A stretch of DNA of 6,332 bases. Origin: a virus (taxonomy: Duplodnaviria; Heunggongvirae; Uroviricota; Caudoviricetes). The position numbers and the translations under genes were made by a program. The notes beneath the pieces were generated by a model. The model worked only from the letters and a program-made list of their open reading frames with translations, had not been told where the DNA came from and did not search any database. Shown here one piece after another: positions 1-5,056 of the stretch; positions within the stretch are counted from its first letter, which is position 1, and every line of letters starts with the position of its first letter. The DNA is taken from IMG/VR virus record IMGVR_UViG_2681813186_000009; one strand, written 5' to 3'.

Positions 1-3000
1 GCACCCGCTGGTCAATCAGCTGCACAAGACTGCCTGCCGCCTCCGGCCCTATCTGGCCATTAGTCCCGTCATTCTGAATGGCGATATGGTAGACCGGGGA
101 ATACACCAGACCCGCACTGCCGTTCATACTACCCACCGCGCGCACACCCAGCGAGCCATCCGCCGCCCGCGTCAGAGGCATAATGGCTTCAGGTCCGGCC
201 TCCCCCATCAGCCCGGCCCCTTTTGCAAAGGCAAAGTACGTGGGCGTATCCACAATACTGTTGCTGTACGCACTCAGGTTTGCCGAGGTATACACGCCGC
301 CTTTTGCATTGGCCACCGCCCCGCCCAGCCAGTCACCAATGCTGCCGAGAAATCCTCCCGCACCGGACATACCGTTTGCCGCCGTCTTAATTCCGTTGAC
401 AATCGCGGCATTCATAAGAACTTTTGATATTTCCTGCAGCACTGATGAGGCCCAGCTGCGCCATTCCACTTTATTCCCGTTCAGCATCTCCGTGATGTTA
501 TTCACCATCCCTGAGATACCCTCCGTCGCAAGCTGTGCTGCCTGTGAGGCGTAATCGGACGCATTATCCACCCAGTTACTGAACCCCTCCTGCAGCCCTT
601 TCTGCCAGTCCGCACGCTGCACATCCGATTCGGCATAAAAGGCTGCCTGGTCCTTAAGGCGTTCGCTCAGATACTGCGCGTTCTGTGCCCGTGCCTGTCT
701 GTAAAAATCCTCACTGATATCCCCGGTCTGATACTGAGACTGAAGGTCCGCATCCTTCTGGCGGAAGCTGTCGCGGATCTGCTGCAACTCCCGCATGCGT
801 TCCCTGGCTCGTTCTCCCTGCCCGTATCCCAGCAGTTCGGCTTCATTTGATGCACGCGCAGCCACATTATCATTCTTCAGGGTCTCTTCCCGGGATCGCA
901 ACTGTTCCCGGATTTTTTGCTGGTCAATCAGGGCCGCGTTACGCAGCAGTTCCTGCTTCTGCATCTCCGTCAGGGTTTTCAGTTCGCCCTGCGCAGTCTG
1001 GTACTTCAGCTTCGCCAGCTCTGTATTCTGACCCGCCAGTGCCAGTTGCTCTTTCTGCTGCTTCAGTAGCCGGGAAAAACTGTCTTCCGCTTTTTCCGTC
1101 TCTGATTTTCCACCCCGGGATTTAGGTTTGTTCGCCTCGTTATTACGCCAGGCTTCCAGAGCATTACTGATATAACGCTGTCTCGCCTCCTGATACGAAT
1201 CCCCCACAAAACCAAGGTCATCCGCCGCATACCCCAGCCGGGCACGCTCTTTTTCTTCCCCTTTCAGTCTGGACAGGGCCAGCTCACGCTCTGTTTTTGT
1301 CAGGGCACTCTGCTGTTTATCATCCAGAGTGGCCTGTGGCAGCCGTAACGGCACATTCACCAGTCCCTGCCGCTGCTGAAGCAGTTCATTACCCAGCCCC
1401 AGCAGACGGTTGAATTCCGTATGCTGACCGTTCATAACCAGCATGGACTGGTACACCTTATTCTGCTCTGCCGCCTGCTGACGAATTAACGCCACACGAC
1501 GGTCTTCCAGCCCGGCAAGCACATCCTGAATGGACTGCGCTTTTTCCTGCATCTGTGCCAGACGGGACTGCTCAACGGCAAGCTGCTCTGTTGCCTGAGC
1601 AAGCCCTTCCGTTACGGTCTTCACCGAGGTCAGATGGTTTATCATGAATCCGTCACCGGTCGTCCAGCCCGGGTTCGCCAGAACATACTGATATCCTGCG
1701 ATTTTTTCCTGCAGGGATTTCACCCGACTGGCCTGTTCATCAATCAGCCGGTTCTGCTCTGTCAGCGCCGCCCGTGTTCGTCCTTCATTATCTGAGGCTT
1801 CAGGCAGAGACATTGACGGCGTTTTATGCGCGATTTCATCTATCGTCAGTGCATACTGGCGCGCAGACTCCCTGGCCTGCTCCTGATTCTGGTACAGCGT
1901 GTACCATGCTGCAGCCCCCAGCATCACCAGTCCGGGTACGCCACCAACCAGCCCCAGCGCACCGCTCATCAGACGTGAGCCCACCGCCGTTGTACTGTTC
2001 AGCGCATTCTGGGCGGCGCTTCTGGCAGCAATATTTCTGTTCAGGCGTTCCTGTGTGGCCGCCAGACGGGCCTCTGCTGCAATCTGCATCTCCGTCCCGC
2101 GGGCTGCCGCCACGGCCTGCTGAGCACGGTACACGGCTGCTCTTGCCCGCGCCGTGGCAATCTGCGTTCCCCTGAACTGTGCTTCCGCCAGTGCAACTTC
2201 ATTACGTGCAGCCGTCACAAGTCCTGCCGTGGCAGACATCGCTCCGGAGGCCATATTGCCAAAGTACCGGGCAACCCCGACGGCAACCAGTGCCCCCACG
2301 GCTGTTGCCACATTATCAATCTGTCCGGCAACACCGTTCAGCACGCCGGAGAGCGTTTTCGTCACCCCGCTGGCCTCATTCGCACCGCCCACCCAGGCCA
2401 TAAAGGCGTTTTCCACCTTCGTGATACTACTGGAAACCGTTTCCGGCATGGCCGCATATTCATCACGTAATATCCCCAGCTGGCTGATTAACGCGGGGAC
2501 CACTTTATCCGCTGTCAGTTTTCCGTCATCCGCCATTGCCTTCAGATCTTTACGGGCCACGCCCATACCCGCAGCCAGTGCACGTACGATCCGGTCACCA
2601 CTTTCATTGACCGAATTAAACTCCTCACCACGCAATACACCCTGCGCCAGCGCCTGACTGAACTGGGTGATCACCGAGCCCGCCTCTGCCGTACTGGCAC
2701 CGGAGATTTTCAGCCCTGTCGAAATGGCCTCCGTCACCTTCAGCACATCATCAGCACTGTAACCATATTCACGCATTGAGGCGGCTGAGCGGGCAAACAG
2801 GGCCGCATTATCCGAAAATGCGGTGCCTGTCCGCTGGCTGATATCCATCAGCACTTTCTGTGATGACGAAAATTCATCAGATGACTGCGACGCCTGTTTC
2901 AGACGGGCATTCACGGAACTCCACTCATCCGCCAGTGAAATCAGGTGTCCGGTGGCAAAGGCACCGGCAAACGCACCGGTCATTCCGACAGCCGAAGCGC

Positions 3001-3193
3001 GGATTTCCGTCAACTGGCTGTGCAGCTCAGCCAGAGCCCGGCGCTGCTCCCTGGCTGCCGCAGCAGCCTGACGTCCGCCATTCTGCAGGGTCCGGTAATA
3101 TTCACTGCCCATACGGGACGCCCGCTGGATCTCCGACTGGAATGACTGTGAATTTGCCGAAATTTTGATAATCAGTTCACGTAACGTCGCCAT
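1..3193 (-). CDS. Tail tape measure protein (lambda-family), N-terminus and ~1064 codons present; C-terminal end truncated by the window start
   Basis: ATG at 3193-3191 preceded in frame by TGA, with SD-like GGAGAAAGG (revcomp of 3197-3205). I hand-checked the frame at ~3190-3120, ~2300-2230, ~2000-1950, ~1020-975 and 110-2 and found no stops; the ORF track probably omits it because it lacks a stop inside the window. N-terminus MATLRELIIKISANSQSFQSEIQRASR. Long Ala/Gln/Arg/Glu-rich coiled-coil-like stretches, two Gly/Ala/Val-rich hydrophobic segments (~2215-2310 and ~1886-1960), and a C-terminal region ending ...HIAIQNDGTNGQIGPEAAGSLVQLIDQRV that resembles, from memory, the C-terminus of lambda gpH. 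Position directly downstream of the chaperone pair fits. Confidence 0.85.
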   Translation of the reverse strand, partial: MATLRELIIKISANSQSFQSEIQRASRMGSEYYRTLQNGGRQAAAAAREQRRALAELHSQLTEIRASAVGMTGAFAGAFATGHLISLADEWSSVNARLKQASQSSDEFSSSQKVLMDISQRTGTAFSDNAALFARSAASMREYGYSADDVLKVTEAISTGLKISGASTAEAGSVITQFSQALAQGVLRGEEFNSVNESGDRIVRALAAGMGVARKDLKAMADDGKLTADKVVPALISQLGILRDEYAAMPETVSSSITKVENAFMAWVGGANEASGVTKTLSGVLNGVAGQIDNVATAVGALVAVGVARYFGNMASGAMSATAGLVTAARNEVALAEAQFRGTQIATARARAAVYRAQQAVAAARGTEMQIAAEARLAATQERLNRNIAARSAAQNALNSTTAVGSRLMSGALGLVGGVPGLVMLGAAAWYTLYQNQEQARESARQYALTIDEIAHKTPSMSLPEASDNEGRTRAALTEQNRLIDEQASRVKSLQEKIAGYQYVLANPGWTTGDGFMINHLTSVKTVTEGLAQATEQLAVEQSRLAQMQEKAQSIQDVLAGLEDRRVALIRQQAAEQNKVYQSMLVMNGQHTEFNRLLGLGNELLQQRQGLVNVPLRLPQATLDDKQQSALTKTERELALSRLKGEEKERARLGYAADDLGFVGDSYQEARQRYISNALEAWRNNEANKPKSRGGKSETEKAEDSFSRLLKQQKEQLALAGQNTELAKLKYQTAQGELKTLTEMQKQELLRNAALIDQQKIREQLRSREETLKNDNVAARASNEAELLGYGQGERARERMRELQQIRDSFRQKDADLQSQYQTGDISEDFYRQARAQNAQYLSERLKDQAAFYAESDVQRADWQKGLQEGFSNWVDNASDYASQAAQLATEGISGMVNNITEMLNGNKVEWRSWASSVLQEISKVLMNAAIVNGIKTAANGMSGAGGFLGSIGDWLGGAVANAKGGVYTSANLSAYSNSIVDTPTYFAFAKGAGLMGEAGPEAIMPLTRAADGSLGVRAVGSMNGSAGLVYSPVYHIAIQNDGTNGQIGPEAAGSLVQLIDQRV

Positions 3194-3209
3194 TCACCTT
3201 TCTCCGGGC

Positions 3210-3235
3210 AAAAAAAACCTGCCACAGCAGGTTTT
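3210..3235 (-). terminator. Intrinsic-terminator-like hairpin between chaperone stop and tape measure start
   Basis: Minus-strand sequence AAAACCTGC-TGTG-GCAGGTTTT gives a 9-bp stem with 4-nt loop, followed by a run of 8 T (revcomp of the A run at 3210-3217). It lies in the 51-nt gap between the TAA at 3245-3247 and the tape measure SD. An A-tract upstream and T-tract downstream make it symmetric on both strands. Confidence 0.5.
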
Positions 3236-3244
3236 CATCATTAT

Positions 3245-3924
3245 TTATGACATTGCTGCAAGGCTCAGCGCGTCTTCCAGCGCCGCAAACGGATCCACCT
3301 CCGGCTTATCCTCATCCTCGCCCCAGCAGAGCATGGCGTCCTTCAGTGCAACATTCATCCCCTGTGCCCCGAAAACCGCTTTCACGATCTGTGCATTACG
3401 GATATCCCCGCGCTCATCACCCAGCGGGGATACCCTGTCGAACTCCATCCACATCATCGCCTCGCTCGCACTCAGGCTGTGCCGCAGTTCGGATAAGGTG
3501 CGCCCCAGACGGAGCGCAAGTCGCATCAGAAAGCGAATTTCCGGGCGGGCTACTTTTTTCTGGCCGACTCTGCATCAGCGATCAGTTCCAGTGCCTGACG
3601 CAGCAACCGGGCATGTACCGGACCATAGACGGCCAGCACCTGCTCACGGTCGTCCGGAGTGAACACCCGTTGCAGGTCAGTATCACACAGGACATCGCAG
3701 AACAGCGTCACATCCGCTTCCAGGTTACGGCGGGTTTTCGCCACCACCGACAGGGTATCGTCATCCTCTCCATCACCATTGAGCACTTCCTGCCACAGAT
3801 ACCAGGCCTCTGCCGAAGGCTCCCGCAGCACCACGCTGACATTTCTCCATTCCGGCACCTTCACCGTTTTATGACGGAACCCCGACAGTCTGGCCAGCGC
3901 CAGTGTTTTCAGATCTTTTGCCAT
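3245..3924 (-). CDS. Predicted -1 frameshift fusion product of the tail assembly chaperone (G-T analogue), about 226 aa
   Basis: The -1 frame is open from upstream of the slippery site (...KKVARPEIRFLMRLALRLGRTLSELRHSLSASEAMMWMEFDRVSPLGDERGD...) to TAA at 3247-3245. The ATG at 3526 has no recognisable SD upstream. The downstream segment resembles the lambdoid minor tail protein T family as I recall it. Chaperone followed by a -1 frame extension, then tape measure, is the conserved arrangement. Confidence 0.65.
3550..3924 (-). CDS. Tail assembly chaperone (functional analogue of lambda gpG), 124 aa
   Basis: ATG at 3924-3922, 5 nt after the major tail TAA; stop TAG at 3552-3550. Small acidic protein (MAKDLKTLALARLSGF...DGEDDDTL...ADAESARKK) located between the major tail and tape measure genes, the conserved chaperone position. 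Ends directly on a slippery heptamer. Confidence 0.7.
   Translation of the reverse strand: MAKDLKTLALARLSGFRHKTVKVPEWRNVSVVLREPSAEAWYLWQEVLNGDGEDDDTLSVVAKTRRNLEADVTLFCDVLCDTDLQRVFTPDDREQVLAVYGPVHARLLRQALELIADAESARKK
3553..3559 (-). promoter_or_regulatory. Slippery heptanucleotide A_AAA_AAG for -1 programmed ribosomal frameshifting
   Basis: Minus strand reads GCC AGA AAA AAG TAG in the chaperone frame. The heptamer A AAA AAG (3559-3553) is the X_XXY_YYZ type also used by E. coli dnaX and sits immediately before the 0-frame stop. The -1 frame continues AAA AAA GTA GCC CGC CCG... Confidence 0.65.
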
Positions 3925-3929
3925 AAGCC

Positions 3930-4646
3930 TTATCCGCCCGCACCATTAACCGTTACTGTACACGCATCAGAGGTAATGCTCTGCGGCTGTTCTGCAGAAT
4001 CCGTTACCTCGCAGGTATAAGCCCCCTTATCACCTGACTGCGTATTGGCTTTACTGAAAGTGTCAGTAGTCTGTCCCTCTACCGGCTGACCATCCTTCTT
4101 CCAGGCGTGTTTATAAGGCGGCGTTCCCCCGTTGACACTGACTGACATTGTCAGCAGCGCACCGGTATTCACGGTAAGTGTCTTCTCCAGATTTTTCACA
4201 AACGCCAGCGGTACCACATAGGACACCGGTTTACCCTTCAGGCGAAGTGAAAACGTTGCAGCCACCACGCCGTTGGTACCGGATGACCAGGTGTGCTGAC
4301 GCACTTCCGCCAGGAACTTAAAGCCCTTACCGGACGGAAACTGCACCTTAAACGCATACACCGTGTCATTGTCATAGGCATCACGCAGGGCGTTCTGGGC
4401 CTGATTCAGATAAAAATTACCCGACATGGAAATCTCGGACGACGCCCCCAGACCGTTGATGTTCTCCTGCTCTGTGGAGCAGAGCGTGGTCACATCAATA
4501 TCCTGTTTCTGACCGGCGGTGAACTGGACTTCCTTGATGGTGCAGTCCAGGCGCAGATATTCCGCCTTATCCATAGTTTCAGCAGTCGCCGGGGCAGATG
4601 AAATCATCACCTGCGTCAGCTGTGAGCGTTCATACAAAGCAGACAT
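3930..4646 (-). CDS. Major tail (tube) protein with C-terminal Ig-like domain, 238 aa
   Basis: ATG at 4646-4644 preceded by a perfect AGGAGG (revcomp of 4651-4656) with 4-nt spacer; stop TAA at 3932-3930. The track's longer GTG-initiated version (to 4715) is rejected. C-terminal ~90 aa (…SVSVNGGTPPYKHAWKKDGQPVEGQTTDTFSKANTQSGDKGAYTCEVTD…CTVTVNG) has an Ig (I-set-like) signature, as known for phage major tail proteins. Position upstream of the chaperone pair fits. Confidence 0.85.
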   Translation of the reverse strand: MSALYERSQLTQVMISSAPATAETMDKAEYLRLDCTIKEVQFTAGQKQDIDVTTLCSTEQENINGLGASSEISMSGNFYLNQAQNALRDAYDNDTVYAFKVQFPSGKGFKFLAEVRQHTWSSGTNGVVAATFSLRLKGKPVSYVVPLAFVKNLEKTLTVNTGALLTMSVSVNGGTPPYKHAWKKDGQPVEGQTTDTFSKANTQSGDKGAYTCEVTDSAEQPQSITSDACTVTVNGAGG

Positions 4647-4711: not shown

Positions 4712-5056
4712 TCACACCGTGACCTGAAACTCCAGGGTTGCACGGTAACAGCGGTTTTCCGGAATATAGTCCTGCATTTCACTGACGGATCCCGGGGCCA
4801 GCAGCATTATGGCTTCACGGGCGTCCTGACGTATCTGACGCGCCTGCGTCACAGTCCCGGCATAAACGTCTATCTGCACCGACACTGAGGACTCCGCCTG
4901 CCCGCCCATCACGTCCGCCGACACCGATGAAATCAGGCTGAAAACCACCCACGGAAGCGCCACCGACGGCCTGCCATCCAGCAGGGGGACCACATACGGG
5001 TACACCTGCCCGCCGGCAAGATGCGCCAGATGAGGATACAAATCCGCCTCCGTCAT
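4712..5056 (-). CDS. Tail completion / tail terminator-like protein (DUF3168-like, functional analogue of lambda gpU), 114 aa
   Basis: ATG at 5056-5054 overlaps the upstream stop as ATGA; SD-like GAGGT about 9 nt upstream; stop TGA 4714-4712. Sequence (…YPYVVPLLDGRPSVALPWVVFSLIS…VQIDVYAG…) fits my recollection of the DUF3168 tail-completion family. It is the last gene before the major tail gene. Confidence 0.6.
   Translation of the reverse strand: MTEADLYPHLAHLAGGQVYPYVVPLLDGRPSVALPWVVFSLISSVSADVMGGQAESSVSVQIDVYAGTVTQARQIRQDAREAIMLLAPGSVSEMQDYIPENRCYRATLEFQVTV

Follow-up and report, generated by a model that had tools for sequence, protein, structure and literature searches.

A putative G/GT-type -1 frameshift site between the tail chaperone genes of a Stx-converting lambdoid prophage

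The virus record IMGVR_UViG_2681813186_000009 of IMG/VR holds a stretch of 6,332 bases, called the window below and numbered from its first letter, which covers the head-tail joining and tail module of a long-tailed, Shiga toxin (Stx)-converting lambdoid prophage with its genes on the minus strand. A tail assembly chaperone gene, here called G, and a second segment, T, in the -1 frame relative to it, are flanked by the genes for the major tail protein and the tape measure protein. The two meet at an A_AAA_AAG heptamer that is followed directly by the stop codon of G. To judge from the sequence, this junction is very probably a programmed -1 frameshift site of the tail-chaperone G/GT type, in a gene pair resembling gp13/gp14 of phage HK97.

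The G and T frames at the junction

G is annotated as a tail assembly chaperone in Stx phages and in RefSeq, and its product matches the Pfam family PF06222 (Phage_TAC_1) end to end, over residues 1-124, at 8.4e-61. The initial annotation placed the last codons of this open reading frame (ORF) at AGA AAA AAG TAG, and both the sequence and its translation agree (...GCC AGA AAA AAG TAG). It also described the -1 frame as open from there through an ATG at 3526 to a TAA, which translation bears out, the TAA lying at 3247..3245. The -1 frame opens at 3574, just 22 nucleotides (nt) before the G stop, and is translated as ...CRVGQKK VARPEIRFLMRLALR...AAMS, the whole stretch being CRVGQKKVARPEIRFLMRLALR...AAMS. 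Within these 22 nt, in which a shift could reach the -1 frame, A_AAA_AAG is the sole slip-prone motif. As a bare string, AAAAAAG is unremarkable, since the two strands of the window contain two copies where 0.55 would be expected and 26 of 200 shuffled sequences have at least as many; it is by its phase, position and conservation that the heptamer goes beyond chance.

Read through a shift at the heptamer, the predicted G-T fusion is composed of 226 residues, and the junction peptide that had been foreseen, ...ESARKK-VARPEIRF..., is reproduced by translation (...SARKK-VARPEIRFLM...). A profile search of the -1 segment against the minor tail protein T family, proposed in the initial annotation as a check, returned PF06223 (Phage_tail_T, the lambda T family) with E=5.9e-19 and 68.7 bits against a gathering cut-off of 25.9, covering profile positions 1-70 of 73. 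The order of the genes, with the major tail protein at 4646..3930, G at 3924..3550, T at 3553..3245 and the tape measure protein from 3193, is the canonical G/GT arrangement. Coordinates and the basis of each feature are given in Table 1.

Table 1. Features of the chaperone junction and its neighbours, in window coordinates
Feature	Position	Strand	Basis
Tail assembly chaperone gene G, 124 residues, 0-frame product, HK97 gp13-type	3550..3924	-	ORF translation; PF06222; equals Sakai ECs_1801
Slippery heptamer A_AAA_AAG, the last two sense codons of G and the preceding A	3553..3559	-	X_XXY_YYZ phase of the 0 frame
0-frame stop TAG abutting the heptamer, candidate 'shifty stop' stimulator (inferred)	3550..3552	-	Sequence
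T domain of the predicted GT fusion, 102 codons from GTA GCC CGC to TAA 3247..3245	3245..3553	-	Translation; PF06223
-1-frame linker ARPEIRFL, eight codons separating the post-shift GTA from ATG 3526; frameshift-only	3527..3550	-	Codon periodicity
ATG used publicly as the start of a separate 'protein T' or DUF4035 gene; Met134 of the fusion	3524..3526	-	Annotations
Weak local hairpin including GCCCGCCCGG, from 5 nt after the heptamer; not a supported stimulator	3522..3547	-	Fold
Major tail protein gene, upstream neighbour of G	3930..4646	-	Pfam tail tube families; 717-nt major tail subunit in annotations
Tape measure protein gene, downstream neighbour, extending beyond the window	1..3193	-	1064 stop-free codons from ATG 3193; annotated so in BP-4795 and Sakai

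Conservation of the junction in diverged homologues

The close relatives of the window are numerous and nearly uniform. Positions 3100-4100 are 100% identical to the Stx2a phages 1447 and WGPS2 and 99.9% identical to BP-4795, and positions 3200-3950 were found in at least 1245 of 5426 complete E. coli genomes. Around the site, the Stx phages and E. coli prophages, at 96-100% identity, are uninformative for comparison; therefore, diverged homologues were used, collected by tblastn against phages and by a pattern scan with one genome per species. A scan of viral contigs mainly returned near-identical copies, and little was gained from it. The comparative set comprises 97 loci, namely 12 annotated phages, 80 genomes of different species, four viral contigs and the window, in each of which G, the G stop and the frame of T were located; 84 distinct -1 junctions were counted. 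When the conceptual 226-residue fusion was compared by tblastn with 50,697 phage records, 248 records matched. In the diverged relatives (HK97-like coliphages and phages of Klebsiella, Cronobacter, Vibrio, Halomonas and Burkholderia), G and T always appeared as two separate matches, and in the HK97-like phages the two pieces cover 99% of the fusion with approximately 60% identity.

T was found to lie in the -1 frame at 94 of the 97 loci, and every one of the 84 distinct -1 junctions has a slip-prone motif, in phase, within the overlap. The motif is A_AAA_AAG in 46 of them, A_AAA_AAC or A_AAA_AAA in seven, and G_GGA_AAG or G_GGA_AAC in another seven; the other 24 have an A_AAG tetramer with a non-canonical first half, such as the G_GAA_AAG of HK97 or GCA_AAG. 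As a control, the bodies of the homologous G genes (9212 codons) contain no A_AAA_AAG at all and 21 canonical heptamers of any kind, or 0.23% per codon. Together with the gene order and the two Pfam families, the frames and motifs of these homologues support the claim of the initial annotation that the site is the conserved siphovirus tail-chaperone -1 frameshift, predicted to yield G and a G-T fusion.

The position of the motif relative to the stop is also shared. It stands flush with the 0-frame stop (TAG, TAA or TGA) in 53 of the 84 junctions, as it does in the window, where TAG abuts the heptamer, and in 33 of these a TAG or TAA comes directly after A_AAA_AAG. Grouping the junctions greedily at 65% protein identity gave 26 clusters, with A_AAA_AAG in 17, a flush stop in 14 and both together in nine. 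The initial annotation set this heptamer with its flush stop apart from lambda; by the counts of junctions (33/84) and clusters (9/26), it is no oddity but the commonest layout of the HK97-like family, and the lambda-type G_GGA_AAG is the minority form among these junctions.

HK97, HK446 and Cronobacter ENT39118 have G_GAA_AAG at the homologous place (L016, which is HK97, at 1330-1360; also L006, L007 and L009). Such a sequence falls outside the canonical X_XXY_YYZ pattern, since in the P site GAA would have to re-pair with GGA, and only the A_AAG tetramer fits. HK97 is nevertheless annotated as frameshifting.

Two other loci depart from the common arrangement. The prophage of Candidatus Symbiopectobacterium endolongispinus (L018, 1777-1785) has a run of nine A, one A above its close relatives, which puts G and T in one frame and makes the locus read ...IAKKKVTQPGMQFLM..., the same as the predicted frameshift product. 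It looks like a decaying prophage and not a designed fusion, because the N-terminus of its G is also disrupted. Serratia sp. L9 (L062, 1855-1870) is the sole locus at which an apparently intact G is followed by T in its +1 (or -2) frame; it reads GCC GAA AAA AGT, with a run of six A, one A below its relatives, and its G is extended by approximately 36 codons. This arrangement could reflect an indel, a sequencing error or a different shift.

Since the site is a homopolymeric run of A, a T-containing product might also be made by transcriptional slippage, in which RNA polymerase inserts one extra A while the ribosome keeps its frame, and the nine-A run that fuses G and T in Symbiopectobacterium demonstrates that the run is indel-prone. 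Efficient transcriptional slippage usually needs approximately eight to nine A or more. The run in the window has only six, and across the family its length varies from three to nine, with three or four A in 29 of the 84 junctions (G_GGA_AAG, GGA_AAG and GCA_AAG). Conservation instead concerns the codon phase, X_XXZ with AAG or AAC at its end, a property that is relevant to a ribosome but not to a polymerase. Slippage of the polymerase is thus a highly improbable source of the fusion.

Access to the T segment, stimulators and flanking genes

Between the post-shift GTA and ATG 3526 lies a linker of eight codons, the variation of which shows -1-frame periodicity. Among 32 homologues that share this spacing, the entropy averages 0.68, 0.88 and 1.53 bits at -1-frame codon positions 1, 2 and 3, respectively, with a Pro codon that is near-invariant at positions 1-2 and a Phe codon, TTT, that is invariant at positions 1-2. 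In a protein alignment of 10 sequences, Pro128 is invariant and Phe132 is at least 90% conserved. This periodicity is evidence of translation of the region in the -1 frame; with the 0 frame ended by its stop codon, ribosomes can reach that frame only through frameshifting.

The other route would be a free T of 93 residues made from ATG 3526, either by independent initiation or by reinitiation after the TAG 23 nt upstream, with the heptamer being incidental. Public records do give a separate coding sequence (CDS) from this ATG. The codon at its position is ATG in 81 of the 84 homologues and always lies near the G stop, at gaps of -4, -1, 8, 11, 23 or 26 nt; in 13 Burkholderia-type relatives, the ATG shares bases with the stop in ATGA or TGATG, the classical forms of coupling. 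The conservation of Met is explained at the protein level, because it sits in the most conserved peptide of the T segment, LMxLALRLG(R/K)TL, and three homologues have Leu (CTG or TTG) in its place, as does lambda T at the equivalent place in a visual alignment. The statement in the initial annotation that this ORF has no Shine-Dalgarno (SD) sequence of its own holds: with -3.5 kcal/mol, the anti-SD pairing upstream of ATG 3526 is poorer than at any of the other seven gene starts of the window, where it amounts to -5.8 to -14.5 kcal/mol, and the homologues share no conserved SD. Also against a free T stand the coding periodicity and the near-invariant Pro codon 5' of the ATG, along with the slip motif kept in phase at every junction. 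Taken with an incidental heptamer, the free T is very improbable, and it is unlikely as the sole route to T; that it is a minor extra route beside the frameshift is rather doubtful.

At the Burkholderia-type loci (L013, L015 and 11 others), where the Met codon overlaps the G stop, A_AAA_AAG is placed 24-33 nt upstream. In these loci, both routes to a T-containing protein look possible.

As to what promotes the shift, the initial annotation pointed to dnaX, in which the shift is helped by an upstream SD-like element and a downstream hairpin, and suggested that the GC-rich GCCCGCCCGG might supply the latter. A composite signal of the dnaX or IS911 type would indeed use the same heptamer as dnaX; a small hairpin starts 5 nt after the heptamer, and Sharma et al. 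scored a hairpin in 85% of the members of the cluster to which the site belongs (PMC4066793). The local hairpin, which is all that GCCCGCCCGG takes part in, is only -7.3 kcal/mol, and the ddG given for the cluster by the same authors, 0.020+/-0.023 per nt, is background-like, with no conserved SD (PMC4066793 Table S8). Folding of the RNA 3' of the heptamer, which had also been proposed, speaks against a structure there, with 53, 83 and 171 nt giving z values of -1.0, -0.8 and +0.2 against dinucleotide shuffles. Similarly, the 50 nt downstream of the heptamer show no excess stability in the window (z = -0.1) or over the 84 homologues (mean 0.08), and RNAalifold found zero consensus pairs in 33 homologues with A_AAA_AAG plus stop.

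A further hairpin, GCGCUCC-GUCU-GGGGCGC (3500..3517, minus strand), begins 35 nt after the heptamer, too distant for a classical stimulator. It was rejected because it is made of the conserved ALRLGR codons and because its pairing is lost in homologues that keep A_AAA_AAG and the stop (L035, L038, L045, L083 and L084).

Upstream of the heptamer, the best anti-SD duplex at -20..-4 is -3.0 kcal/mol, equal to the median of the control windows, compared with -7.4 kcal/mol for an AGGGAG segment of the dnaX type. Family-wide, over the 84 loci and from 20 to 4 nt 5' of the slip motif, anti-SD pairing is slightly above the G-body controls (mean -4.7 versus -3.5 kcal/mol, p=1.6e-6), an excess that would favour a composite signal and is probably due to purine-rich acidic codons at the C-terminus of G. 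The proposed dnaX-like stimulators were therefore not found, and a composite of an SD-like element and a hairpin is very unlikely here. The signal shares its heptamer with dnaX but not its architecture.

The remainder of the window is in keeping with a tail module. By Pfam, the genes on the minus strand are, in order, those for a head-tail connector, a head completion protein, an HK97-gp10-like protein, a tail completion protein and the major tail protein, followed by the 124-residue ORF, the 93-codon ORF that begins with ATG (3526..3245) and the tape measure gene. The major tail protein has an in-frame C-terminal immunoglobulin (Ig)-like domain (Pfam Ig_2, Ig_3 and I-set) at residues 172-256 of a 261-residue ORF, and the first codon of this mechanical ORF is a GTG that lies 69 nt 5' of the annotated ATG 4646. 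The tail completion gene gp17 is an intact ORF of 114 residues in the window (5056..4712); in E. coli PV15-279, which has a prophage of the same type (L003, 397-740), it is flagged as a 'frameshifted' pseudogene by the Prokaryotic Genome Annotation Pipeline (PGAP).

Between the stop of T (3245) and the start of the tape measure gene (3193), an intrinsic-terminator-like hairpin is present at 3213-3236 on the minus strand, reading AAAACCUGCU-GUGG-CAGGUUUU and followed by more U. It has ten base pairs per arm, AAAACCUGCU with GGCAGGUUUU, at -12.5 kcal/mol, and lies on the coding strand just 5' of the tape measure gene; the consensus scan gave only a report on the opposite strand. In HK97-like phages, rho-independent terminators are annotated in the corresponding position. 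This hairpin could attenuate tape measure expression relative to the chaperones.

Published counterparts and the role of the flush stop

The G/GT frameshift has belonged to the textbook examples of recoding since 1993. The site in the window is itself already known, being an ordinary, catalogued G/GT frameshift whose exact sequence is published. Its G-T region is that of ECs_1801-ECs_1802 in prophage Sp9 of E. coli O157:H7 Sakai (100% identity over 691 of 691 aligned bases), with the heptamer, the stop and the T segment in the same DNA and no sequence difference. Cluster A_AAA_AAG_25, 'tail assembly chaperone; [true]', has ECs1801 as its type gene and consists of 53 genes with a longer frameshift product (Sharma et al., 2014, PMC4066793 Table S4); the label '[true]' was given to expected, known cases (PMC4066793). 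The cluster is also listed in Tables S7 and S8 of that study, the former equating it with the GeneTack programmed-frameshift cluster #10 (PMC4066793). Antonov et al. (2013) described a 41-member 'phage tail assembly chaperone' cluster similar to HK97, two members of which gave 6% and 7% frameshifting in E. coli reporters (PMC3711429). The G/GT type of chaperone frameshift was generalised by Xu, Hendrix & Duda (2004), as related in PMC5009743 and PMC10885494. The Sakai site was published in supplementary tables only, and a full-text literature search for ECs1801, ECs1802 and the corresponding EDL933 tags returned nothing relevant.

The public records are divided on how the two frames are presented. 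A -1 join is annotated for HK97 gp13/gp14 (NC_002167, 'translated due to a -1 frameshift'), for HK446 and for gp69/gp69' of Bcep176 ('lambda G / T equivalent'). The records nearest to the window (Stx phages, BP-4795, RefSeq PGAP and Sakai) still give two separate genes, with no slippage join in any that was inspected. In Stx phages and PGAP records, the T CDS is 282 nt long, starts at ATG 3526 and is named 'phage tail assembly protein T'; in Sakai (ECs_1802) and some PGAP records, it is 210 nt long from a later ATG and named 'DUF4035 domain-containing protein' (L177, 20472-20681; L004, 1967-2176).

A close annotated counterpart is HK97 gp13/gp14, which shares its Pfam families, gene order and -1 relation with the present pair and has a fusion that is 61% identical (224 residues against 226 here). 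The combination of PF06222 with PF06223, similarity over the full length and the same frames places the present genes among pairs of this type. HK97 differs in its non-canonical G_GAA_AAG, which lies 15 nt before the stop and of which only A_AAG re-pairs, and in having a moron, gp15, between T and the tape measure gene.

Lambda G/GT has the same role: the gene situated between those for the major tail and tape measure proteins has, close to its 3' end, a heptamer with A_AAG as its last four bases, on which the -1 shift takes place. The lambda heptamer was given correctly in the initial annotation as G_GGA_AAG, and it lies 15 nt before the G stop of that phage. The lambda T segment belongs to the same Pfam family, PF06223, as the -1 segment here, and is longer (144 residues against 102). 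BLASTP of T against lambda T gave nothing meaningful, and the relation between the two is therefore at the profile level only. BLASTP of G against lambda gpG gave E=6.7 over six residues, and a Pfam scan of G (E<=0.01) returns only PF06222; G is thus an HK97 gp13-type chaperone that works like lambda G and is not a sequence member of the lambda G family.

Two other systems use the same A_AAA_AAG. In dnaX, which makes gamma and tau, tRNA-Lys re-pairs in the same way, with an SD-like element upstream, a strong hairpin downstream, a shift of approximately 50% and a shorter product (PMC3711429). The junction in the window differs in that neither stimulator was found, the shifted product is the longer one, the family shifts at 6-7% and the heptamer runs straight into the 0-frame stop. 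IS911 and other orfAB pairs of the IS3 family likewise make a longer fusion protein, with documented stem-loop, pseudoknot and SD stimulators (PMC4066793), none of which is detectable here.

The preferred explanation, a programmed frameshift on the heptamer, may be set out as follows. Most ribosomes would read AGA AAA AAG and stop at TAG, releasing the 124-residue G that is encoded directly by the 0 frame. A minority would slip back by one base on A_AAA_AAG, where the single tRNA-Lys of E. coli could re-pair from AAG to AAA, and would then read GTA GCC CGC CCG... for 102 codons to the TAA ending at 3245, giving the 226-residue fusion. This shift is deduced from sequence, conservation and the published reporter data on the family. 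In lambda, both G and GT attach to the tape measure protein, and the major tail protein is recruited by the T part; the two forms stand at approximately 30:1, and neither is present in the virion (PMC5009743). By analogy, the G part here would bind the tape measure protein, the T part would recruit the major tail protein, and a fixed low rate of shifting would set the G:GT ratio.

Besides the near-constant Met codon beside the G stop and its overlap with that stop in the Burkholderia-type relatives, as described above, three further points weigh against this explanation. The GT fusion at this locus is predicted from sequence and from published work, and the 6% and 7% of PMC3711429 stand for two members of the HK97-like cluster and not necessarily for this exact sequence. 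The third point concerns the rate. In E. coli, unstimulated shifting is 0.29% on A_AAA_AAG and 0.28% on G_GGA_AAG, rising to 4.3% and 3.8% with the IS911 stimulators and to 39% and 43% with the IS3 pseudoknot (PMC4066793 Table S3). The unstimulated value for A_AAA_AAG is approximately 20-fold below the 6-7% of the family, and no stimulator was found to account for the gap.

The only conserved feature of the context is the 0-frame stop directly 3' of the heptamer, and a family rate of 6-7% without a detectable RNA stimulator, taken with this conserved stop, suggests that the stop itself contributes. It may slow decoding of the next codon and so favour slippage of the tRNAs in the P and E sites, as in the 'shifty stop' idea of Weiss et al. 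(1987), as cited in PMC5009743. A contribution of this kind is a tentative proposal, somewhat short of an even chance. More doubtful is the stronger form of the idea, in which the flush stop is functional and the only stimulator in the HK97-like chaperone family. The Lys tRNAs in the P and E sites would then slip on A_AAA_AAG while a release factor slowly decodes the stop in the A site, and the G:GT ratio and with it tail assembly would be tuned by the availability of release factors 1 and 2 (RF1/RF2) and not by RNA structure. As a minor addition to the role of the flush stop, the conserved Met 23 nt downstream might allow some termination-reinitiation and hence some free T.

The scientific weight of the site is small, as it has been published and its family tested in reporters. 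Its main residual value is the correction of annotation: if the two-gene annotation is general, the 226-residue GT fusion would be absent from the protein databases for a very common locus. Furthermore, a family in which the slip site usually stands flush with the stop, with no RNA structure, may be a clean natural system for learning whether -1 shifting can be lifted from approximately 0.3% to several percent by nothing more than a stop codon.

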